Below, in pieces: positions 1 to 10,847 of a stretch of 10,847 bases of DNA. How positions within the stretch are numbered: the stretch's first letter is position 1; each line of letters starts with the position of its first letter. Source of the stretch: a virus (Duplodnaviria > Heunggongvirae > Uroviricota > Caudoviricetes); the IMG/VR virus record IMGVR_UViG_3300020498_000003. One strand, given 5' to 3'. Position numbers and translations under genes: made by a program. The notes beneath the pieces were generated by a model. That model had not been told where the DNA came from, searched no databases, and worked only from the letters and a program-made list of their open reading frames with translations.

Positions 1-1754
1 TATGTAAATCTTGTTCCAGATAGTTGGAATGAATCATTAAACATTATATCACAACTAAATACAACAGCATTTGATGAGTCTCTACCAATGAATTGTCTGA
101 CATCAGAGAATTGATAGTTATAAATTTTACTTACAGTTCCGACATCTCTACCATCAACTGAAATTACTTCCCCTTCTCTGAAATTGCCATTTACATTAAT
201 TAATTCTAAGTTGTCGGAAGTTACTGATAATGCACCTCCACTAACTCTAATAAAACCAGTTGCTCCAGATGATTTACCTACAATCTGAGATCCTGCTATG
301 ATAGTAGTAGAAGCACCTAGCTTAATTCTTGTAAATAGAGAAACATCAAATAGGAATGCTTTATATACATCATTCTCGTTTCCAGTTACACCATCAGAGG
401 TGTCCTCTAGTTCCCAATTGGATATTCTTGCAAATCCAATAGTTGTTCCATTAGAAGATCCTGGAGTAGTATTCTCACGATCCTTCAATTCCACAATTTG
501 GTAAGATGGTGAAATATTTGGTCCAGTAATTAAAGGTGTTCCGTAGACATTGCTGACTAGAACATAGTTACCCAACTCAAATGGTACAATATTATTTTGT
601 AACGATACAAAGTTTCTAGGTTTAGGTACATCTAGATACTTTGGATTTGTTGATTGAATTGGATATCCTCTTAGATATGCTCTACCAGGAGATACTTGAA
701 CAGCATAAAGTGATTCTGATGCCTCTACTTTGGTGTCTTCTGTAATCTCCCCTGCATTATATACACCATCATTAAATCCATCATTTAGACACTCTCTTAC
801 CGTAATATCAAATGGATCGATCATGAAATCGCCATTTGTATCAAATGTTCTTTTTGCTAGTTCTTTTTCTAGTTCACTATATGCTGTTCTTTCAACGAAT
901 GATTGTACTTTTCCGTTTTCAATACGAATCAATTCAATGAAGTTTTTATCAGCGTCATCGCCAATTTCTTTTTTAATTAATGTGGTGTTAATCTTAAATC
1001 TATGTGCTCCAGGTGCAGCATAGTTTGATGATCCAGCAGCATTATCATTTAGCGAATCATCATCTTCTGGTGTAATAATAGATTCAGATACTTCAAGACC
1101 AACTCTGAATGATGGGTCTTTTGCATATTGATCTAGAATGATATATTGAGACTTTACATCTACAAAGTGACCTCTAATAAAATATACACCTGTGTTAACA
1201 TAAGCAACAGATGCAACTGCAGTTGCTTCATTAGGAATCATCTGAGCAAATGGACTTCCAATTTCTAACAGAGTTCCACCAAATGTGATTTCTTTATCTG
1301 CTAGTAATTGTTCATTATCTAAGAATCTTAGAATATCGTTGTTTGTTCCACCAGCTTCAGTATACTTAACATATAGAGTAATAAAATTCCTATCAGACTC
1401 TTCTGCAGAAATTGAATATAATACTTTTGCCTTTACCCCAGTAGTAATACCAGTTATGGTTGTACCAGTTAATTGTGATCTGTATAGTTCTACTTCAGAT
1501 CCAAGGAAACTAGACTGTAGCAGAATGCAGTCTACATTGTTATCAAATCCAACTTGACCAGGGATGACCATGGAACCATCCTTGAAGAAATGGTTTCCCA
1601 TGTTCTCGATCTGATTCTGTAAGATCGATTGCATTGTAGTGAGTTCTCTTGCCTGAATCGGGAACCCAGGACGATAAAGAACCTTATAAAAGTTCTTAAA
1701 CTTATCAAAATCATCATAATAAGGTGTTACATTTAAGTTGGTATTCTGGGGCAT
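1..1754 (-). CDS. VrlC-like / DUF4815-family virion structural protein, N-terminal 584 codons (runs off the left edge; absent from the ORF track)
   Basis: ATG at 1754-1752 (cat on +). My manual translation found no stop down to position 3: MPQNTNLNVTPYYDDFDKFKNFYKVLYRPGFPIQARELTTMQSILQNQIENMGNHFFKDGSMVIPG...GVYFIRGHFVDV...RVGLEVSESIITPEDDDSLNDNAAGSSNYAAPGAHRFKI...SPGRAYLRGY...SGTRFT. The N-terminus (PYYDDF, RPGFPIQARELT, APGAHRFKI) is the one I recognise from VrlC-like proteins that follow gp8 in cyanomyoviruses. It starts 16 nt after the gp8 stop. Confidence 0.9.
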   Translation of the reverse strand, partial: MPQNTNLNVTPYYDDFDKFKNFYKVLYRPGFPIQARELTTMQSILQNQIENMGNHFFKDGSMVIPGQVGFDNNVDCILLQSSFLGSEVELYRSQLTGTTITGITTGVKAKVLYSISAEESDRNFITLYVKYTEAGGTNNDILRFLDNEQLLADKEITFGGTLLEIGSPFAQMIPNEATAVASVAYVNTGVYFIRGHFVDVKSQYIILDQYAKDPSFRVGLEVSESIITPEDDDSLNDNAAGSSNYAAPGAHRFKINTTLIKKEIGDDADKNFIELIRIENGKVQSFVERTAYSELEKELAKRTFDTNGDFMIDPFDITVRECLNDGFNDGVYNAGEITEDTKVEASESLYAVQVSPGRAYLRGYPIQSTNPKYLDVPKPRNFVSLQNNIVPFELGNYVLVSNVYGTPLITGPNISPSYQIVELKDRENTTPGSSNGTTIGFARISNWELEDTSDGVTGNENDVYKAFLFDVSLFTRIKLGASTTIIAGSQIVGKSSGATGFIRVSGGALSVTSDNLELINVNGNFREGEVISVDGRDVGTVSKIYNYQFSDVRQFIGRDSSNAVVFSCDIMFNDSFQLSGTRFT

Positions 1755-1770: not shown

Positions 1771-3303
1771 TTAGAACTCAATAACAATTTTAATGTCTTC
1801 GATCTGATCGTTTGCACGGGAGATCGGTCTTCTATTATCTATATAGATAACTTGTCCGCTGTCTTTTTGGATCTCTGGATCTGCATAACCAGCAGTAAAT
1901 CTCATACCCAAATCATATTCAGTATTGTTGATAATTCTGTTGGATGCTCCAGGAACAGCAGGGAAGTTTACATCTGGTTGTCCACTTGCACCAGATGTTG
2001 CTCCAGTGATAGTATTACTTCCAGAAAAATCATTTAGTGAACCAGTAATTTCTGGGAAAATACCATCAACTTTATTTTGATAGTATTTTAGGACTTTTGT
2101 TGTAGAATCCCATGATACAACTCTTCCTCTAGAAGTAATTGTTTGACCACCAACACTCTTAGATTGTGTGATAATCTCGTCTGGTAAGAAATTACCTTGA
2201 AATGTTGGTGGGAAAATAACTGCTCTGAGTGAAGTTAATGTTAGTTCATTTGTCAATTCACTAGTGCTATATCTTTTTGGATTTAATACTAGACCAATTC
2301 TTCTATAGTCATTATCAATTGGGAAGTCTCCAGATCCTTCTGAGTATGATAATTTTGCATTTACCATGACTCTATATCCACCTAATTCATAAGCACTATT
2401 TGATCCATGTCCACCCTGAGGGGGAATTATAACATCGATAGAACCACCACTTCCAGTACCAATTCCATTTACATCATCAACTACGATCTTTCCGAATGTA
2501 TATCCAGTACCACCAGAAGTTACAGTAGCATTTACAATTCTGCCACCATCAATTACTATAGAAACTCTACCACCAATCCCATCACCATTGATGGGTACAT
2601 TATCAAATGTACCGTTATTGTAACCAGAACCAGCAGCAGAAATTACAACAGTATCAATTTCTCCTTGTACTGCGTTTGAGTTAACTGCGGAGTCATTTAG
2701 TACTGGAATGTATTCTGACGAGAAGAACTTAAGAACCTGAGCAACAGGAATCGTGTACATATATTTCCATCTATATCCATCAGCAGTTGTGATAATAGAT
2801 GTCGATGTTCCAGTTGGTTCAATAGTTGAAGGTCTACCATTAGGATCAGATGGTGAAGTGCCATTGTAAATGCACTTATATGCCTGATATGAAGAGTTTA
2901 CAACATAGAAGTCAGCATCATATAATCTAGTAGAACCAGATGCAGCAGTCTTTGTAGGAGAATAGTCATGACGATACATATCGTAGATAAATCCCAGTCC
3001 ACCAGTTGTCTTTTCTGGGGGAATCCAGTCAATTCTACGAACTACTTGAATACTGTCATTTGCAAGAACTCTCTTTAGCGATATCATGTCATCGTAGACA
3101 TCACTATACTCAGAAAAACTATCTACAGGTTCTGGTGGATTATTGTCGGATTCCCACTCTTGAGGTCTTCCGATAAATACATATAATCTGTCCCTAGTTG
3201 ATCCTGCTTCCAAATCAGTTGCCTCTGGGTTTGGTCCTTCTAGAGACTTAATGAATTTTTGAGCAGCATATATTCTAAATTGATCAGTGAGAAGTGCTGA
3301 CAT
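1771..3303 (-). CDS. gp8: T4-like baseplate wedge subunit gp8 (510 aa)
   Basis: Motifs typical of cyanophage gp8: LTDQFRI, LYVFIGRPQEW, DDMISLKRV, VVRRIDW, YDMYRHDYS, FYVVNSSYQAYKCIYNG, EPTGT..TTADGYRWKYMYTIP, PQGGHG, C-terminal GQVIYIDNRRPISRANDQIEDIKIVIEF. It has an AGGA SD and a CTAAATA box upstream. Confidence 0.93.
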   Translation of the reverse strand: MSALLTDQFRIYAAQKFIKSLEGPNPEATDLEAGSTRDRLYVFIGRPQEWESDNNPPEPVDSFSEYSDVYDDMISLKRVLANDSIQVVRRIDWIPPEKTTGGLGFIYDMYRHDYSPTKTAASGSTRLYDADFYVVNSSYQAYKCIYNGTSPSDPNGRPSTIEPTGTSTSIITTADGYRWKYMYTIPVAQVLKFFSSEYIPVLNDSAVNSNAVQGEIDTVVISAAGSGYNNGTFDNVPINGDGIGGRVSIVIDGGRIVNATVTSGGTGYTFGKIVVDDVNGIGTGSGGSIDVIIPPQGGHGSNSAYELGGYRVMVNAKLSYSEGSGDFPIDNDYRRIGLVLNPKRYSTSELTNELTLTSLRAVIFPPTFQGNFLPDEIITQSKSVGGQTITSRGRVVSWDSTTKVLKYYQNKVDGIFPEITGSLNDFSGSNTITGATSGASGQPDVNFPAVPGASNRIINNTEYDLGMRFTAGYADPEIQKDSGQVIYIDNRRPISRANDQIEDIKIVIEF

Positions 3304-3350: not shown

Positions 3351-5459
3351 TTAAAAACTATCATTTCTCAATTGAGTATCATAACTAATAGAGAGTATTC
3401 TCCAAGACGCTCCATTTTGACCTGTTAAAATTTCTCCACCAAGAATTGCTTCAGCAACAGCACCAGATCCATTTCCACCACTAAATGTAATTTGTGGTAC
3501 ATCTGTATATCCATAACCACCATTGGATAATGTTATTGTACTAACTTGGTCTGCCAACATCACTGCAGTAGCAGCTGCTGATGTTACTGAATTATTTTGG
3601 AATTGAATTATAGGTGCAGAATTATAACCATTACCTCCAGAAATTACCTTAACACCAACTACTGTACTGTTATCGGAGAATTTATATAGTAATCCAATAT
3701 CTTCATCTTGTGTATCATATGGTATTATTGAGTTGACAACGAGAGTTTGTGTATTTGGATTCCAAGATTCTACAGTAGCTCTAATTTGTGAATTTAATCC
3801 AGTCACAGTTTCTCCAATAACATAGTTAACTCCATTGAAATACGCTGGATTGCGAGTATCTAATTTAATAGTGAGACGAACGAAATGATCTACTCCCTCG
3901 TTCAGATTACTTGCATCAACAACTGTAGCATTCTTGAATGGAATGCTAGAGTCTCTTACTTTATCTCCAACTTGGAATAATGTGGTATTTTGACCCCCTT
4001 GAGTTTCTTCAATACCATATAATGTTGATGGAATACCACCATCTAAATTAATTTGATCTTCATAGTCAGTTCCAGTGTTTATTAGATCTGGTAGACCATC
4101 TCCATCACCATCCAATTCTGCAATATCCTCAAATGCAAAATCCAATAATACTGAGGGTATCTCTGTTAATCTGAAAATAATTGAACCTTCTTGGTCTATA
4201 ACATTGTGTGGAATACTAAATGTTCCAGATGAATCTGATACCCCAGCATCAAACACTACATTGCTCTTTTCTCCAGGAAGTCCAGCATCAATAAATGCTA
4301 GTTCATCTACTTGGAAAACAATGAATAATTCTTTTGTTAATGGATTCCAATCATATACTATAGCAATTTTATTATTTGCACTTTCTGTGCTCCTAATTAA
4401 TCTATCTCCAACATTAAATTCATATGTTGTTATTCCAGTAACTTCATCATCTTGAGTGTCATCTAATACAACTCTCTGATCATATCTAAAGTTAATACCT
4501 CTAGTGCAACCAGTTAATCTATTGACATCCTTTCCAGTATATCGTATTAATTCAGATCCCAATAAGATAACACCACTTCCTGGAAATGGATTGGTAGTAG
4601 ACACATAAATGTTTGTATCATTTCTATCTGCATCTATTGTAAGACCAGCAAGATTGTAATATTCTAAATTATAAGATTGTCTATTTCTTGCAATTTTTTT
4701 TAATTTTGTTTTTCTGGCAAATACAACTCTAGGTGGAGTTACATATCCCCTTCCTGAATTTTGTAGAACAATATCGACAATTTGTCCTTGATTTATTACA
4801 GCTCTTGCCTTTGCTCCAACTCCACCTCCACCAACTAAAAGGACATATGGTTCTTTTAGATAGAACTGTCCAGGATTACTAATAGTGAAATTGGTAGATA
4901 CAATCGAAGTATTGTCAATTTCTGCAACTCCTCTTGCACCTCTACCACCACCGCCACTAATGGACAAGAATGGTGGTTCCTCATATTCTCTACCTTCATT
5001 TAATATTGTCAATCCAGTTACTGTTCTTGGAGTCGCCCTAAGAACAGCACCATTTCCTTCTCCACCAATTATTTCAGCATCAACATCATAGAATTGTTTA
5101 TCGCCACTTCTAAGCATTTTAATATAATCAATACTTCCATTTTCTTTTAATACAACTTCTGCATCTGCTGGATCTGGTAATTCAGTGGCGTTTTCTGGTA
5201 TCTGTGGAAAGAATTTAACCCTCAGCGGATCATATCCCTCACCAGGATCAAGAACCTGCACTGAAACGATTCTGCCATTTTCTATAATTGGTTTTAGTAC
5301 AGCATCTCGTATAGGAGTTCCACAATTTCTTATAGTCAATACTGGTGGTCTAGATTCACTATATCCAGATCCACCATTTTTAATGATGACGGAATCAACT
5401 CCCAAGTCATCATTAAAAACAGGAACTATTACTGCTCCAGATCCAGGTCTAGTTGCCAT
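3351..5459 (-). CDS. Putative virion/baseplate structural protein with GxGY and GGxGxGA repeats (702 aa)
   Basis: Long ORF with repeated beta-rich units (IKNGGSGY, VLDPGEGY, ILNEGREY, LQNSGRGY, VISGGNGY, LSNGGYGY; GGEGNGAVL, GGGGRGARG, GGGGVGAKA, GGNGSGAVA) of the kind common in cyanomyovirus baseplate proteins. It lies directly upstream of gp8 and is preceded by CATAAATA. Its exact function is unknown. Confidence 0.8.
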   Translation of the reverse strand: MATRPGSGAVIVPVFNDDLGVDSVIIKNGGSGYSESRPPVLTIRNCGTPIRDAVLKPIIENGRIVSVQVLDPGEGYDPLRVKFFPQIPENATELPDPADAEVVLKENGSIDYIKMLRSGDKQFYDVDAEIIGGEGNGAVLRATPRTVTGLTILNEGREYEEPPFLSISGGGGRGARGVAEIDNTSIVSTNFTISNPGQFYLKEPYVLLVGGGGVGAKARAVINQGQIVDIVLQNSGRGYVTPPRVVFARKTKLKKIARNRQSYNLEYYNLAGLTIDADRNDTNIYVSTTNPFPGSGVILLGSELIRYTGKDVNRLTGCTRGINFRYDQRVVLDDTQDDEVTGITTYEFNVGDRLIRSTESANNKIAIVYDWNPLTKELFIVFQVDELAFIDAGLPGEKSNVVFDAGVSDSSGTFSIPHNVIDQEGSIIFRLTEIPSVLLDFAFEDIAELDGDGDGLPDLINTGTDYEDQINLDGGIPSTLYGIEETQGGQNTTLFQVGDKVRDSSIPFKNATVVDASNLNEGVDHFVRLTIKLDTRNPAYFNGVNYVIGETVTGLNSQIRATVESWNPNTQTLVVNSIIPYDTQDEDIGLLYKFSDNSTVVGVKVISGGNGYNSAPIIQFQNNSVTSAAATAVMLADQVSTITLSNGGYGYTDVPQITFSGGNGSGAVAEAILGGEILTGQNGASWRILSISYDTQLRNDSF

Positions 5460-5481: not shown

Positions 5482-5489
5482 TATTTATG
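5482..5489 (-). promoter_or_regulatory. Putative late promoter CATAAATA overlapping the protease stop codon
   Basis: + strand tatttatg at 5482-5489. The minus strand reads TCA TAA ATA, 22 nt upstream of the ATG at 5459. Confidence 0.7.
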
Positions 5490-7146
5490 ATACCTTTCTT
5501 CTTTGTATTGCAACTCTAGGATAGGTCATTCCAGAAGATTGTCTTACGCTATAATTAAATTTTGGATTTGCTACTCCAGTTTCTGGCCTATCTTTTTTGT
5601 AGTATGCGTATCTATTATTTGATGTGTTGCCTAGGGAAATATAGTCTCCAGCATTACCTCCAGTTGTAGAGATTTGACCAATTTTAGATGCACTGAATAT
5701 ATAATCTCTTGCAATAGTTTGATTTATATTTGGTAATTGCTCTGCTAAGCAAGCAAGTAATCCTGCTACTTGAGGACTTGACATACTGGTTCCAGATATT
5801 GAACCAATTTTATATGAAGATGATCTTGGATCATTTGCTAGTATAATGCTAAATTCTGCTGCAGCAGTAGCATCATATACAGAAGACACAATATTTGATC
5901 CTGGAGCATATAAATCTACTCTACTTCCATAGTTACTAAAAGTTGATTTATATTCTTGTGAAGTAGTTCCAATACTTCCAACACAAATACTATTTCCTGC
6001 AGCAGTTGGGGAAGATCCTCTACTGTGGAATATTTGTTGTCCAGATACAATGATAAAATTATCCCAATCTTGCATACTGCTAGTGGCACAATTCCAATAA
6101 GAATTTCCAGCAGAACCAACAATAATTACGCCATCATTAATTGCATCTTGAACATCAGCATCTAATGCAGCATATCTAGCAGGTATTTGATACAAATAAT
6201 TATTAAATGGAACTGGAACACCATTCTCTTCTAATGCCTGTTTCTTTACTGTATTAGATAATCCTGATAGTGTTGTAACAGTAGATCTGTACATTACTTG
6301 AAATATATCAGCAAGTTGATAATTTGTTGTATATGAGTATCCCCAACTATTATTAACTACTGTTGGATTTCTTCTGCCAGTATTAGCATTTACATCTTTG
6401 TTTTTATGCCAATGTCTAATATAATCAAATATCACTAGCGCCCAATCTGAACCACCATAGTTACCACCTTGATAATTAAATTCCATGTTAAAGATTTTAG
6501 AATCTCTTGCCCATCCTTGAGTATTCCCAGCAACAGTTCCAGCAACATGAGTTCCATGGTTACTGCTTATGTTGGAATAATTATATGTTCCAGTAGTAGA
6601 AATACCAAGTATAGAACTATACTGAAACCAATCAATTTGATTTACTCTGGTTCCACCAGTGCCATCATCATTTATTGCAAATTCTGGATGTGATGGATTT
6701 ATGTGGGCATCTACAATTACTACATCTACATTTTTGCCAGAGCTAGTTGTCTTTATATTTGCAGACCTTTGAGTAAATGCACTATTTGTACCCCATCCAG
6801 CAGCCTGTCCACCTTCAGTTATTCGGAGTAACCCCCAATTTTTATCAGAAGAATCAATTGTCGAATTCTTCTCAAATACTCCAGTTTGTGTCCAGAATGG
6901 TGTTACACTAAGTCCTAGTTCACTTGGTAGTAATTCTACAGCAAGAACTCTAGGATCATTCCTTAGAGATTCTGCTTCTTGCTCCGTCAAACTATAATGA
7001 GTATTTCTACTTATATCTCTTCTCAACTTGCAAGAAACTTTTCTATTGGGAATATATAAATCCCCACCAGGAGTTTCCATATCATCATAAAATTGCTCTA
7101 GATCATCAAATTTTTTTAATGTAACTACATATATACTTTTCATCAT
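5485..7146 (-). CDS. Subtilisin-like serine protease (peptidase family S8) with I9-like prodomain, no signal peptide (553 aa)
   Basis: Catalytic D146 in VDVVIVDAHINPSHPEF (6709-6711), H197 in NHGTHVAGTVAG (6556-6558), oxyanion N348 in IVGSAGN (6103-6105) and S454 in SGTSMSSPQVAG (5785-5787). Also VVNNSWG and FSNYGSRVDLYAPGSNIVS. The N-terminal YVVTLK...LTEQEAESLRNDPRVLAVE resembles an I9 propeptide. Confidence 0.95.
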   Translation of the reverse strand: MMKSIYVVTLKKFDDLEQFYDDMETPGGDLYIPNRKVSCKLRRDISRNTHYSLTEQEAESLRNDPRVLAVELLPSELGLSVTPFWTQTGVFEKNSTIDSSDKNWGLLRITEGGQAAGWGTNSAFTQRSANIKTTSSGKNVDVVIVDAHINPSHPEFAINDDGTGGTRVNQIDWFQYSSILGISTTGTYNYSNISSNHGTHVAGTVAGNTQGWARDSKIFNMEFNYQGGNYGGSDWALVIFDYIRHWHKNKDVNANTGRRNPTVVNNSWGYSYTTNYQLADIFQVMYRSTVTTLSGLSNTVKKQALEENGVPVPFNNYLYQIPARYAALDADVQDAINDGVIIVGSAGNSYWNCATSSMQDWDNFIIVSGQQIFHSRGSSPTAAGNSICVGSIGTTSQEYKSTFSNYGSRVDLYAPGSNIVSSVYDATAAAEFSIILANDPRSSSYKIGSISGTSMSSPQVAGLLACLAEQLPNINQTIARDYIFSASKIGQISTTGGNAGDYISLGNTSNNRYAYYKKDRPETGVANPKFNYSVRQSSGMTYPRVAIQRRKVS

Positions 7147-8285
7147 GCCTCAAGTTGAAGGACTGTTAAAGTAACTGAAATGGATGCTGCAGACCCAGAT
7201 TTATTTACGATCTTTAAGTAAATATTTTCTGATGGAGTTTGATCATCATTAAATCCAATTGCAACTGGAGTCATTGCTTGAGTTGCTGCCGCTGTGGTTA
7301 TAACCTCTGCGACTACTCCAGAACCTGGAATTGGATCTGTAGTTTCAGATCTTCCTGCATCTGCTGTCCTAGAAACTGTTGATGTGTAAATTGTAACCCA
7401 AGCAGCAGCACTTGTTGTTATTTTCAGTAGAGCATAAGTCTTAAACCCAATAACTGCCACATCAGATGATGCATTATTTGCTATAGTACCAGTTGATACT
7501 GTAAGTGTTCCTCTTTGCTGAAGAGAACTTCCTCCTCCACCACCTGAAATATCGTCAATTGAATTTACCCAAGTTGTTCCATCATATTTTAATACCTGTC
7601 CAGTAGTTGGAGCAGTTACTTCAACATTAGATAAGTCCTGTATATTTACTGGAACATTAGGTTTATTTGTTAGATCGTTGTAACTACCAGAGAAAAGTGT
7701 GGGTTTACTTAACAGATCGTTATAAGAACCACTGGTCGCCACAGCAGATAATGTTGGTTTATTACCAAGATCATCATATAGACCACTAGTAGCAACGACA
7801 GATAACGATGGTTTGTTTAGAATTCTCGCTACACCAGAAGAAGCATTCCAATCAGTATTAACCTGAGCAGCAGGTATTGTTGGTTTATTCGTTAAATCAT
7901 TATAATTTCCCGAGAATAGTGCAGGTCTACCAGTAAGATCGCTATACGAACCACTGGTTGCCACAGCAGATAATGTTGGTCTATTTAAGATTTGAGATAT
8001 TCCAGAAGTGGCATTCCAATCAGAATTCACTTGAGCCGCTGGTATTACAGGTCTATTGATAAGATCATTATAATTTAGTGCAGCATTAATAAATGCCACC
8101 CCATTTGATCTTAATACCTGACCAACAGTAGATGATGTCTCAATATCAATTTTAATATTGGTGCCATCTCCGAGTTTTTCATATACCTCGTTAAGCATTG
8201 AATTTAACTTTTGACCAGCAGATCTCAGAGAGTCGCCAGTCCCGTCATTCGGAGATGCTCCAACATTTATTAATTGTTTTGCCAT
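7143..8285 (-). CDS. Fibre-like protein with a T4 gp9/gp10-like N-terminal anchor, a YxDLxxKP repeat shaft and an uncharacterised C-terminal head (380 aa)
   Basis: The N-terminus MAKQLINVGASPNDGTGDSLRSAGQKLNSMLNEVY matches the gp9/gp10-type anchor motif. It has six YxDLxx[KR]P repeats, a DLSNV..PTTGQVLKYDGTTWVN fibre motif, a poly-Gly linker and a ~125-aa beta-rich C-terminal domain. An AGGAG SD lies upstream, and the TGA stop overlaps the protease ATG (ATGA, 7143-7146). Confidence 0.8.
   Translation of the reverse strand: MAKQLINVGASPNDGTGDSLRSAGQKLNSMLNEVYEKLGDGTNIKIDIETSSTVGQVLRSNGVAFINAALNYNDLINRPVIPAAQVNSDWNATSGISQILNRPTLSAVATSGSYSDLTGRPALFSGNYNDLTNKPTIPAAQVNTDWNASSGVARILNKPSLSVVATSGLYDDLGNKPTLSAVATSGSYNDLLSKPTLFSGSYNDLTNKPNVPVNIQDLSNVEVTAPTTGQVLKYDGTTWVNSIDDISGGGGGSSLQQRGTLTVSTGTIANNASSDVAVIGFKTYALLKITTSAAAWVTIYTSTVSRTADAGRSETTDPIPGSGVVAEVITTAAATQAMTPVAIGFNDDQTPSENIYLKIVNKSGSAASISVTLTVLQLEA
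7714..7980. repeat. Direct repeat pair of 45 nt (7714-7758 and 7936-7980) within the fibre gene
   Basis: agatcgttataagaaccactggtcgccacagcagataatgttggt vs agatcgctatacgaaccactggttgccacagcagataatgttggt: 42/45 identical, with a 33-nt core at 32/33. The offset is 222 nt (74 codons), and both copies encode PTLSAVATSGSY.DL. Confidence 0.9.
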
Positions 8286-8296
8286 CTTTTTTATTA

Positions 8297-8301
8297 CTCC
8301 T
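8297..8301 (-). promoter_or_regulatory. Shine-Dalgarno AGGAG for the fibre gene
   Basis: + strand ctcct at 8297-8301, with an 11-nt spacer to the ATG at 8285. Confidence 0.65.
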
Positions 8302-8308
8302 ATAGATT

Positions 8309-8316
8309 TATTTATG
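8309..8316 (-). promoter_or_regulatory. Putative late promoter CATAAATA overlapping the gp7-like stop codon
   Basis: + strand tatttatg at 8309-8316. The minus strand reads TCA TAA ATA AAT CTATAGGAG, 23 nt upstream of the fibre ATG. Confidence 0.7.
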
Positions 8317-10847
8317 AAGCATCAAAAGTTATAAATGATAAATCAAATGTGGTAGCAGATGAATCAAATGATCCTTGCGTTTCTTCAGGATCTGGAATTT
8401 CTGTTAGAATTTCAATTTCTGGATATAAGTATCCAATTCCAGCATCTATAACATCAACTCTAGAAATACCAACTTGTGCCTTTACTTGTCCATCAAAACC
8501 AGTTGGTGAACTTAATGAAACTACAGGAGTTGAGGTATAACCCTCTCCGCCAGAAGTTAACTGTACAGTTCTAATTCTTCCTCTAATTAGATTTGCTAAT
8601 GCTTCACCATTTCTTCCAAAGACCGAACCAAGATAATCAAATGTGATCAATGAGTTTGATGATTCGACAATAGCAACAGTTCTATCTCTATCTTCAGATT
8701 CAATTTCAAGTTGGTCTCCAGATTCAATTGGTGGAATTACTGTAGCAGCAATAACATCAGCATCAGATCCAATATACGAGTATGCAACAAAGGTACTACC
8801 AGCACGAGGAACTTCCGCAAAGTTGATTCTTGAACCAACAATCTCAAATGCTACTCCTGGTTCTTGAATAACTCCATTTAATGATACAATGATATTATTT
8901 TCTGGTCTAATATTTGTAGACTGAACTCCATCTGTAATTGTTAATGAATAGAATACTTCATTTAATTTTAAGTTGAAGCTGCTTCTTAGTGAGTCAAACT
9001 CGAATGAAATATCATCTAGTTTTCTCAATTTACCAACATAAGTTCCGTGGAAAGTTGCTCCTAATTCTGGTGCCTCTAAGAATTCAATAACATCACTGAA
9101 TGTATTATATGATACTCCAGCTGGTTGTAGAATACCATTAATGTAAACTAGAACATAACCATCAGAATCTGGGAAGTATGAGATTCCATTATTAGATGTC
9201 AACTTAAATGTTGTTTGTGTGCCATCAAAACCTCTGAAGGATCTTGAAATTCTACCAACAACTTCTTTAACAGTGACAATACCAGATCTATAATCATTAG
9301 ACACTAACTGAGAATACTGTGTAAATGTTCCCTTAACGCCACTCAAATATAATCTATAGTTTGATCCAATTTGGAGAATTCTTTCAACATATCCGTATGC
9401 AATTTCGGACTGTACAGAAACAGATTCTACACTTGCGAATCCACTTGGATACTGTTCGGAACCAGCAAAATATGCAATAGTTTCTCCAACCTCAAAATTA
9501 TCATCATCTAGTAAATTGGAGATGTATAGATATTTTTGACCTCCATTCTGCTCATACTTGAGTAAAACTGCTTCTTTTCCTTGAGGAATATTGTCCGTAA
9601 CATTAACAATCTTTTCCCCAACCACAAATGTCGTAGATTCTTCATTTGGAAGATCTATCGTTAAACGATATACATTTGTAGTTTTTACAAGACTACCAAT
9701 AGATACCTGAGTTCCTTCATAACCTAAAGTATCAATATAGATGTCACTCGTCGAAGAATATACTACATTAGATACATGGAATTTATCATTAAGTGATTCA
9801 GTATCTAGTACTAACTTACCACCAGAAGTATCAAGTACTGGAGATGTTGTTCTTTCATATAGAGATACCGTGGATTCGGAATCAGATTTTGGTGCTCTGA
9901 TGTAATCTCCAGTGGAGAAACTTCCAAGGACATTCTTAAGTTGAACTCTATTATCAATAGAAACTATAGTTGCAGTGAAATTATCTTCATTTAAGAGAAC
10001 ATTGTTCACATTAAATGGACCGCTTTGGATTGCAACATCAATATAGTTAATAGTTTCGGAATAGTATACCGAATATACCTTACAAATTCTTGATGGTTGA
10101 CCTAAAACTGTAAGTTCCTGATTAATATCGAATGTTTCTACTGCTTCAGCAAAGTTAACTCTAAATCTCTTTAGAATAGTTTTTACATCTGCTCTATTGA
10201 TAATGATTGATGAAATCTCACCATATTCCTGAGAAGTTGTGCCATAGATATAATCTCCTTCAGTAATACCACCCTTAACTGGAGTTATTGGATCTCTAGT
10301 TGGATATACAATAGAAGGAATTACAATTGAATTTTCTGGAACAATAGCATTATCATCAATATATGATGAATTATTTAATGTTCCTAATAGTATGCTCATA
10401 TTATCATCAATAAATGACTGCATACTGGTCAAATTGCCCCCAGTTATTGAAATTGCAGAGTCTGTATATGAATAGAAACCAGCAGCACTAGAAGGAGATT
10501 GTAAAGTTTCTGCAACTGCTTGCTTCATCAAATCTCTAACTTGCTGGTATGCATAAATGCTCTGAATTAATTCTCCCTGTAGTGAAGTTACAGTTCCAGT
10601 TGCAGCATCAATATATGCAACAGTAGATTCGTAAATTCCACTATTGCCATCTGTTAATAGATCATATACAATAGCATCAACAATATATCCAATGTCTCTT
10701 ATGCACTTAGCATTTCCACCTGGGATTGAGAATCCTGGATAATTGTTAAGTGTTCTCTGAATAGTTTCATTCTGAATATACAACTTATTAAACATAATAA
10801 GTTTAGCAGCATCTCTCTTCACCTGTGTAGTTGGGATGAGAATATCA
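8312..10847 (-). CDS. C-terminal portion of a giant baseplate structural protein, gp7 (wedge initiator)-like; 5' end outside the window
   Basis: The frame stays open past the track's GTG at 10822 to the window edge (DILIPTTQ-VKRDAAKL). It contains the KCIRDIGYIVDAIVYDL helical motif (10658-10708), two tandem FD...F.L...NG.[IL]Q.P...F.E.P..G.TF domains (about 9038-9229 and 8774-8998) and GGEGY/AGIGY units, all typical of the very large cyanomyovirus gp7-type proteins. Its position upstream of gp8 fits. Confidence 0.75.
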   Translation of the reverse strand, partial: DILIPTTQVKRDAAKLIMFNKLYIQNETIQRTLNNYPGFSIPGGNAKCIRDIGYIVDAIVYDLLTDGNSGIYESTVAYIDAATGTVTSLQGELIQSIYAYQQVRDLMKQAVAETLQSPSSAAGFYSYTDSAISITGGNLTSMQSFIDDNMSILLGTLNNSSYIDDNAIVPENSIVIPSIVYPTRDPITPVKGGITEGDYIYGTTSQEYGEISSIIINRADVKTILKRFRVNFAEAVETFDINQELTVLGQPSRICKVYSVYYSETINYIDVAIQSGPFNVNNVLLNEDNFTATIVSIDNRVQLKNVLGSFSTGDYIRAPKSDSESTVSLYERTTSPVLDTSGGKLVLDTESLNDKFHVSNVVYSSTSDIYIDTLGYEGTQVSIGSLVKTTNVYRLTIDLPNEESTTFVVGEKIVNVTDNIPQGKEAVLLKYEQNGGQKYLYISNLLDDDNFEVGETIAYFAGSEQYPSGFASVESVSVQSEIAYGYVERILQIGSNYRLYLSGVKGTFTQYSQLVSNDYRSGIVTVKEVVGRISRSFRGFDGTQTTFKLTSNNGISYFPDSDGYVLVYINGILQPAGVSYNTFSDVIEFLEAPELGATFHGTYVGKLRKLDDISFEFDSLRSSFNLKLNEVFYSLTITDGVQSTNIRPENNIIVSLNGVIQEPGVAFEIVGSRINFAEVPRAGSTFVAYSYIGSDADVIAATVIPPIESGDQLEIESEDRDRTVAIVESSNSLITFDYLGSVFGRNGEALANLIRGRIRTVQLTSGGEGYTSTPVVSLSSPTGFDGQVKAQVGISRVDVIDAGIGYLYPEIEILTEIPDPEETQGSFDSSATTFDLSFITFDAS

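Follow-up and report, generated by a model that had tools for sequence, protein, structure and literature searches.

Why would a tailed phage carry an intact subtilisin gene among the genes of its baseplate, joined to that of a fibre? The question is raised by a stretch of 10,847 nucleotides (nt), hereafter the window, from a virus of the class Caudoviricetes (IMG/VR record IMGVR_UViG_3300020498_000003), in which a fibre gene is followed directly by a gene for a pro-subtilase. An earlier note on this DNA had proposed that the fibre carries the protease on the virion, where it would cut a proteinaceous host barrier. Our analyses revealed that the C-terminal head of the fibre and the protease recur together across related phages. 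The reading that we favour, with a probability of roughly 0.55, is that the two genes are a mobile cassette by which a subtilisin-type protease is carried at the tip of a baseplate fibre, to act outside the cell.

The fibre gene and the pro-subtilase gene

Both members of the pair are genuine minus-strand open reading frames (ORFs), as the earlier note had them. Their parts, with lengths in amino acids (aa), are as follows.

7143-8285, minus strand: fibre gene, 380 aa, second in transcription order; matches PHROG tail-fibre and baseplate connector families
7962-8285, minus strand: gp9/gp10-type baseplate attachment domain of the fibre, aa 1-108 (Pfam PF07880)
7527-7961, minus strand: shaft of the fibre, aa 109-253, ending in a Gly5 linker, read from the translation
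7146-7526, minus strand: C-terminal head of the fibre, aa 254-380 (127 aa), a jelly-roll beta-sandwich by model and alignment
7143-7146, minus strand: ATGA in which the stop of the fibre gene and the start of the protease gene overlap, read from the sequence
5485-7146, minus strand: pro-subtilase gene, 553 aa (552 aa with the second ATG), third in transcription order (PF00082, phrog_9158)
6898-7146, minus strand: propeptide-like domain of the protease, aa 1-83; residues 4-83 modelled as beta-alpha-beta-beta-alpha-beta with a predicted local distance difference test score (pLDDT) of about 90
5677-6744, minus strand: catalytic domain, aa 135-490, called on motif and alignment
6709-6711, minus strand: catalytic D146
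6556-6558, minus strand: catalytic H197
6103-6105, minus strand: oxyanion N348
5785-5787, minus strand: catalytic S454
5488-5676, minus strand: disordered C-terminal tail, aa 491-553, of low pLDDT in the monomer model

The protease matches Peptidase_S8 (PF00082) over residues 137-487 with 98.1 bits against a cut-off of 21.8, and phrog_9158 with an E value of 2e-101; its Pfam and PHROG matches are to subtilase or protease families only. The Asp-His-Ser order and the oxyanion Asn are present, which bears out the description of the subtilisin as intact, and D146, H197, N348 and S454 are invariant in 18 homologues that are 35-73% identical. The His and Ser motifs align to proteinase K, placing the protein among the proteinase-K-like subtilases. 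Its AlphaFold model (predicted template-modelling score, pTM, 0.82) has the subtilisin alpha/beta fold, and Foldseek returned pro-subtilisin E, proteinase K and aqualysin as fold matches, with E values down to 4e-15 and target TM-scores of 0.65-0.79. The best of these, unautoprocessed pro-subtilisin E (3whi, E value of 4e-15), aligns over 513 columns, a length sufficient for more than just the catalytic domain. No match to the Pfam I9 propeptide family was found at an E value of 0.01 or better. The protease had also been said to lack a signal peptide, and its charged N-terminus indeed opens the propeptide-like fold instead. From the fold and the active-site residues, we predict that the protein is active as a protease. 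The anatomy of the two genes and the intact active site are thus direct results of the computation.

Compared with the bacterial and fungal pro-subtilases of the proteinase K and subtilisin E type (MEROPS S8A), the phage protein has the same catalytic fold, Asp-His-Ser order and oxyanion Asn, and it too begins with an N-terminal beta-alpha-beta propeptide-like domain. It differs from them in being phage-encoded and coupled to a fibre gene, in the missing signal peptide, in several long insertions, and in its disordered tail, which is predicted to dock. Within this otherwise disordered tail are two motifs, R520-P-x-x-G524 (RP..G) and G539-x-x-Y-P543-R544 (G..YPR), of which R520, G524, P543 and R544 are conserved in the protease alignment.

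Translational coupling had been proposed from an ATGA overlap, and this arrangement was found at 7143-7146. The junction reads ...GAG GCA TGA TGA AA..., with the fibre stop TGA overlapping the first protease ATG. Public gene calls start the protease at the next ATG, giving 552 aa and a 1-nt TGATG overlap; judged from the junction, the coupling is tight whichever ATG is used. The codons for the C-terminal Leu-Glu(-Ala) of the fibre (cttGAGGca; region 7143-7160, minus strand) are conserved and contain a Shine-Dalgarno-like GAGG, 1-4 nt before the protease start, at the position of which related loci mostly have a purine-rich AGG or AGA. Because of where this GAGG lies, both structure and the translation of the next gene may constrain the last residues of the head.

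The N-terminus of the fibre is of the gp9/gp10 type, in agreement with the earlier note: residues 3-108 match Pfam T4_gp9_10_N (PF07880) with 32.6 bits against a cut-off of 25, and residues 3-42 align to residues 2-41 of T4 gp10 (E value of 2e-4 in a PDB sequence search). Other gp10 or gp9 domains are absent, no similarity being found past about residue 108 with Pfam or past residues 42-133 in PDB sequence searches. The fibre therefore resembles T4 gp10 in the alignable first 40 residues and the Pfam N-domain, and departs from it in length (380 aa against the 602 aa of gp10, the rest of which is missing), in a repeat shaft and in a different C-terminal head. What points to attachment to the wedge protein gp7 is the position of the gene beside gp7-like genes. 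A Y-x-D-L-x-x-(K/R)-P repeat occurs in six copies in the whole fibre protein, at aa 71-209, a 54-nt tandem period was detected at 7698-7814 within the gene, and three stretches match the tail-fibre family phrog_9729.

The head was modelled as a nine-stranded jelly-roll sandwich (pLDDT 90.9). Its alignment has a mean column identity of 61%, unusually high for a fibre tip, and an invariant patch, T316-D317-P318-x-P320-G321-S322-G323-V-x-A326-E327 (TDPxPGSGVxAE). Such conservation suits a socket that binds a partner better than a variable receptor-binding tip. The domain was found in 3944 representative proteins, nearly always at the extreme C-terminus. It has no Pfam family match, and searches of the PDB (Foldseek, VIA) returned generic jelly-roll matches only. 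The capsid of a nanovirus (Z 8.0), a trimeric cement protein of a phage (Z 7.3), the C-domain of the subtilase Tk-SP (Z 6.9) and TNF-like lectins (TM-score about 0.4) were the best of these, and none stood out. Neither the fibre nor the protease matches the Peptidase S74 family in Pfam; where S74 proteins have a self-cleaving C-terminal chaperone, this fibre ends in the jelly-roll head.

The head and the protease across phages

The closest cultured relatives of the window virus, itself an uncultured marine virus of cyanobacteria, are the T4-like cyanomyoviruses S-CREM1 (the closest isolate, with 71% DNA identity) and S-H38, in which the gene order is identical to that of the window. Homologues of the protease are annotated as 'subtilisin-like serine protease' or 'peptidase' in cultured cyanomyoviruses, namely S-CREM1 (ORF165, 62% identical to the window protease), S-H38 (QPB07966, 59%), Sf-FR1 (ORF192), S-RSM4 (ORF039), S-WAM2 and S-H9-1, the further isolate homologues being 46% and about 34% identical. 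These homologues share with the window pair an upstream head-bearing fibre gene, a tight junction and the C-terminal tail motif, and S-CREM1 and S-H38 also share its baseplate synteny. When the fibre was compared by BLAST with the genes upstream of S8 homologues in isolates, the C-terminal head alone was shared. Specifically, the heads are 41-56% identical in Sf-FR1, S-RSM4 and S-WAM2, where the fibre N-termini are unrelated.

The same coupling was evident in IMG/VR. A head lay directly upstream in 16 of 16 protease-seeded loci that had upstream DNA, and the S8 query matched directly downstream in 28 of 30 head-seeded loci; the remaining two have, at the same place, a divergent S8 protein and a pro-kumamolisin/S53-type protease. 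The latter (locus L051, 4380-6005) has a pro-kumamolisin activation domain and the same C-terminal G-x-x-Y-P-R tail. An S8 gene also follows each of six head proteins (188-2337 aa) picked arbitrarily from other clusters at 50% identity. Among 34 related pairs, 33 have -4 to +3 nt between fibre stop and protease start, and the other has 73 nt. A clan-SB protease follows the head in all 34, even though the fibres differ in N-terminus, length and place in the genome; grouped by protease, the tabulated pairs make up 19 clusters at 70% identity and 11 at 50%. Six or more unrelated kinds of N-terminus, among them gp10-like, tail-fibre-like and collagen-like ones, occur on these fibres of 188-2337 aa, and the protease family comprises 4343 clusters at an E value of 1e-10 or better among 8000 candidates scored. 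Thus, the co-occurrence implied by the earlier proposal was recovered, with head and S8 (or S53) protease genes coupled in every related locus examined. These gene neighbourhoods suggest that the fibre-head/protease pair is a conserved mobile cassette. No S8 domain was present in eight proteins with internal or duplicated heads that were inspected for Rosetta-stone fusions.

Computation also links the tail to the head. All 30 complete proteases that are coupled to a head carry an [FYW]PR tail, among them the S53-type protein, a 439-aa divergent S8 protein and the divergent S-CAM1 protein, and none of four S8 homologues without a head upstream (P-SSM2_297, S-SCSM1_228, Sf-CH5_215 and S-T4) does. 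These counts come from related and hence non-independent sequences; clustering at 50% leaves the split complete. With a hidden Markov model of the head, no head was detected upstream of P-SSM2- or S-SCSM1-type S8 genes. S-SCSM1 ORF228 (1411 aa) and P-SSM2 ORF297 lie in tail-fibre clusters and share with the window protease a homologous S8 domain (27% identity) and a propeptide-like N-terminus; they differ from it in having neither a head-bearing gene upstream nor the [FYW]PR tail, and S-SCSM1 ORF228 bears lectin-like C-terminal domains of its own instead. The other two, in Sf-CH5 (L059, 3504-5432) and S-T4 (L060, 3654-5420), are distant S8 homologues in tail-fibre clusters that are without the HGTH and GTSMxxP motifs, and from these losses they may be inactive.

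Many relatives of the protease carry extra lectin-like, glycine-rich or cupredoxin-like modules, which are more readily understood on an exposed protein of the particle than on a processing enzyme of the cytoplasm. Cupredoxin-like C-terminal domains were seen in L009 (3989-7135), L010, L013, L022, L061 (S-H9-1) and L062. These domains end in a Y-x-C-Q-x-H-x-x-M motif, with ligands of the blue-copper type, and in the proteases that bear them the [FYW]PR plug stands before the last cupredoxin-like domain and not at the C-terminus.

The conservation of the active site bears on an account in which the protein is a non-catalytic adhesin at the tip, its subtilase fold acting as a receptor-binding module, the triad serving for self-processing and the propeptide remaining bound as in PCSK9. 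Chains of PCSK9 feature prominently in the fold matches, the propeptide region shows good conservation across homologues (Y6, Y20, R43, S46-T49, Y51), no mechanism for its removal is apparent, and the example of Sf-CH5_215 and S-T4 indicates that the fold can persist in fibre clusters once HGTH and GTSMxxP are gone. However, the triad and oxyanion Asn are invariant in all aligned head-coupled homologues, down to 35% identity, and an S53-type enzyme can replace the S8 enzyme at the same position, which argues that proteolysis, and not a particular binding surface, is what is selected. We regard such an adhesin as quite improbable.

Predicted docking and virion proteins

Three copies of the head were modelled together with one copy of the protease. 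The complex scored 0.87, compared to 0.00 for the best of three controls; among solved complexes 58 of 80 attained this mark, as did 2 of 110 mismatched pairs, counts that hold only roughly because custom alignments and a set of 3+1 chains were used here. Runs agreed in at least 63% of contacts, and the pLDDT of the partner was at least 83. In the interface, which is predicted with confidence, protease residues 520-553 (closest pairs at 538-547) contact fibre residues 314-342 of all three head copies. These stretches are the most conserved of each protein, and that of the fibre includes the TDPxPGSGVxAE patch, so the tail is predicted to dock on the most conserved part of the head, in keeping with the partnership that had been proposed. 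The catalytic residues lie outside the model contacts. We know of no solved complex that resembles this model, and recall by the predictor therefore seems unlikely. The model supports binding without showing it, and suggests a geometry of roughly one protease per fibre trimer.

There is a precedent for such an arrangement. In T2- and S16-type phages, gp38, the product of the gene after the distal fibre gene, caps the trimeric tip of the gp37 long tail fibre, and tip and partner are exchanged between phages as a cassette. Likewise, the partner gene described here lies directly downstream of the fibre-tip gene and is exchanged with the tip, and one modelled protease touches all three head subunits. 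The two systems have no sequence or fold similarity; in the window the partner has an enzyme (subtilisin) fold, and the fibre is gp10-like and baseplate-proximal, not a long tail fibre.

Virion proteomics is available for relatives. For S-SCSM1, particles purified on CsCl were analysed by mass spectrometry (PMC9602691), and GenBank flags ORF228, ORF231 and ORF232 as virion proteins; ORF228 combines S8 and lectin-like domains, ORF231 is a head-ended fibre and ORF232 is the unrelated next gene. In virions of the siphovirus P-SS2, the head-bearing ORF087 was detected with 11 peptides and the next gene, ORF088, with 17.5 (PMC2784084). Head-bearing fibres are therefore particle proteins, as the detection of S-SCSM1 ORF231 and P-SS2 ORF087 shows. 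Moreover, the gene after the head-bearing fibre encodes a particle protein in both cases with data (ORF232 and ORF088), and ORF228 demonstrates that S8 proteins of this protease family can be particle proteins. In both phages (S-SCSM1 ORF231-232, L056 2045-6367; P-SS2 ORF087-088, L054 2099-5490) the head is followed by an unrelated non-protease without a Pfam family, and no homology was found between ORF088 and ORF232. Since these non-protease partners were found in virions, the head may serve more generally as a socket that accepts distal partners of several kinds.

For S-CREM1, 14 virion proteins were reported, of which four were described as structural, nine had no known function and one matched no database entry, and the lipase homologue ORF157 was considered probably not structural by the authors of that paper. 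This proteome is shallow, most baseplate proteins having also been missed. The text, supplementary table and GenBank entry are silent on detection of ORF164 and ORF165, virion proteins being marked in a figure only. The proteome papers on S-SM1, S-PM2, Syn9 and S-SCSM2R concern phages without this cassette or do not mention the protease.

These data also bear on whether the protease is instead an assembly or maturation factor, which would bind the head inside the infected cell only, aid its folding or trim the head or another fibre component, and be absent from virions. T4 gp38 and gp57A assist the long tail fibre in this way and are absent from finished virions. The gene directly 3' of a fibre gene is in the classical position of a fibre chaperone, the modelled binding would be equally expected of a chaperone, the protein has no signal peptide, and the S-CREM1 proteome text omits the peptidase. 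On the other hand, a processing enzyme needs neither stoichiometric coupling nor a docking tail that spares the active site, and the head ends at the fibre's own C-terminus, with no further pro-segment that could be cleaved off. It is also difficult to see why a cytoplasmic factor would bear the lectin-like and cupredoxin-like modules found on relatives. In addition, where proteomics exists, the gene after the head-bearing fibre encodes a virion protein, and the fused S8 homologue is itself a virion protein. We consider an assembly role unlikely, though it deserves more weight than the adhesin.

Taken together, the claim that the fibre carries the protease gains three independent lines of computed support, from the coupling, the tail motif and the complex model, whereas virion presence is known for relatives only; for the protease itself it is probable by analogy with them. 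Under the reading that we favour, the fibre trimer would plug into the baseplate wedge through its gp10-type N-terminus, and the repeat shaft would hold out a trimeric jelly-roll head that serves as a conserved socket and not as a receptor binder. Translational coupling would make the protease in step with the fibre. The protease would fold with its own propeptide and bind the head noncovalently through its C-terminal tail (RP..G, G..YPR), leaving the active site free, and it would exit the cell on the virion at lysis, which may be why it needs no signal peptide. Outside the cell, it would cut a cyanobacterial surface protein during adsorption; the candidate substrates, an S-layer, pili, porins or marine protein gels, are guesses.

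Several points weigh against this reading. The virion data cover relatives in which the S8 domain is fused to lectin-like domains or the head is followed by a non-protease, and the S8 peptidase of S-CREM1, ORF165, goes unmentioned in the proteome text and so was probably not detected. The head is not exclusive to proteases, since S-SCSM1 ORF231, P-SS2 and S-CBS2 have other downstream partners. Docking rests on one structure-prediction job and on motif co-occurrence among non-independent sequences, and the coupling suggests near-equal synthesis of the two proteins, yet in the model one tail touches three head subunits. Enzyme activity on the particle would hinge on removal of the propeptide.

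Surrounding genes and wider meaning

The window comes from an IMG/VR virus fragment of 24.8 kb that is about 14% complete, in the whole of which one head and one S8 gene were found and no second copies. All long ORFs of the window lie on the minus strand. The features around the pair are listed here.

8312-10846, minus strand: giant gp7-like structural protein, C-terminal 844 aa, first in transcription order
8309-8315, minus strand: late-promoter-like ATAAATA box (as CATAAATA), which overlaps the stop codon of the gp7-like gene upstream
8297-8300, minus strand: GGAG Shine-Dalgarno-like site, 11 nt 5' of the fibre ATG
5482-5488, minus strand: second ATAAATA box, which overlaps the stop of the protease gene and lies ahead of the gene for the 702-aa wedge protein
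3351-5459, minus strand: wedge protein, 702 aa, fourth in transcription order
1771-3303, minus strand: gp8, fifth in transcription order
3-1754, minus strand: DUF4815 protein, last in transcription order

With the gp7-like giant, the 702-aa wedge protein, gp8 and the DUF4815 protein as its neighbours, the pair does sit among structural baseplate genes, as had been noted; the window showed neither gp11 nor gp12 partners. Residues 8-116 of the gp7-like ORF (10499-10825, minus strand) match the Pfam family Phycobilisome (PF00502; E value of 1.4e-5, 25.5 bits against a cut-off of 22.2), a globin-like fold that is unexpected in a structural tail protein of a cyanophage.

This neighbourhood had suggested, as an alternative, that the protease trims the giant gp7-like protein, or other baseplate proteins, during baseplate assembly. 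In the window, S-CREM1 and S-H38 the cassette is indeed in the baseplate cluster, the pair being flanked by the giant gp7-like gene on one side and another wedge gene on the other. In most phages it lies away from gp7, however: within the tail-fibre cluster in Sf-FR1, S-RSM4 and S-WAM2, and in the tail-fibre cluster or elsewhere in S-H9-1 and S-CAM1. The head domain travels with the protease, and gp7 does not. On gene context we reject gp7 processing as a general role, and we hold it to be very improbable.

The pair had further been proposed to share a late-promoter box and a Shine-Dalgarno sequence. Both ATAAATA (as CATAAATA, 24-30 nt 5' of the fibre ATG) and GGAG precede the fibre gene, but the exact T4 late promoter TATAAATA does not occur in the window, where ATAAATA alone is present, and a reading as an exact T4 late promoter was rejected. 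ATAAATA by itself is not enriched, with three occurrences against 6.2 expected by chance. Of 28 related loci, however, 17 have it within 45 nt 5' of the start of the fibre gene, and none of the 28 has a promoter-like gap between fibre and protease. An identical 9-mer, TCATAAATA, comprising a Ser codon, the TAA stop and the promoter-like box, is found at 8309-8317 and 5482-5490 (minus strand). Because it ends both the gp7-like gene before the fibre and the protease gene, copies of TCATAAATA bracket the cassette, and they could be a recombination joint besides a promoter.

To our knowledge, the enzymes known on phage particles cut sugars or peptidoglycan. Under the favoured reading, the protease would resemble the P22 tailspike, the K1F endosialidase and capsule depolymerases as a virion-borne enzyme at the host-contact end of a fibre. 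Tailspike depolymerases cut polysaccharide with an enzyme that is within the trimeric spike polypeptide, whereas the fold found here predicts cleavage of peptide bonds and the protease is a separate ORF, whose product would be docked, probably as a monomer. The genes were already annotated as subtilisin-like proteases in several isolates, whose genome papers list them in annotation tables only. In the literature searched, we found no functional study of a fibre-borne phage subtilase and no description of a general protease displayed on a fibre, and in a 2018 review of phage enzymes that breach host barriers the words 'protease' and 'proteolytic' do not occur. New in this analysis are the tail motif, which strictly co-occurs with the head, the replacement of S8 by S53, the complex model and the proteomic parallels.

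As a tentative generalization, to which we give a little under even odds, thousands of marine phage fibres end in one jelly-roll socket that holds an interchangeable clan-SB protease (S8, occasionally S53) on the virion via a short C-terminal plug. This would be the first proteolytic counterpart of the polysaccharide depolymerases, cutting a protein on the cyanobacterial surface (an S-layer, pilus, porin or other receptor) and thereby shaping adsorption, host range or release from debris in the phototrophs that dominate the ocean. Should the protease sit on the particle, its tail of about 35 residues and the head of 127 residues would constitute a natural modular plug and socket for attaching cargo to phage fibres. 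The cassette family occurs in viruses of Synechococcus and Prochlorococcus, hosts that are important for ocean carbon cycling. In these viruses, a protease on the particle would be a new determinant of host range, and would suggest that some receptors or barriers of picocyanobacterial phages are proteins that need to be cleaved.

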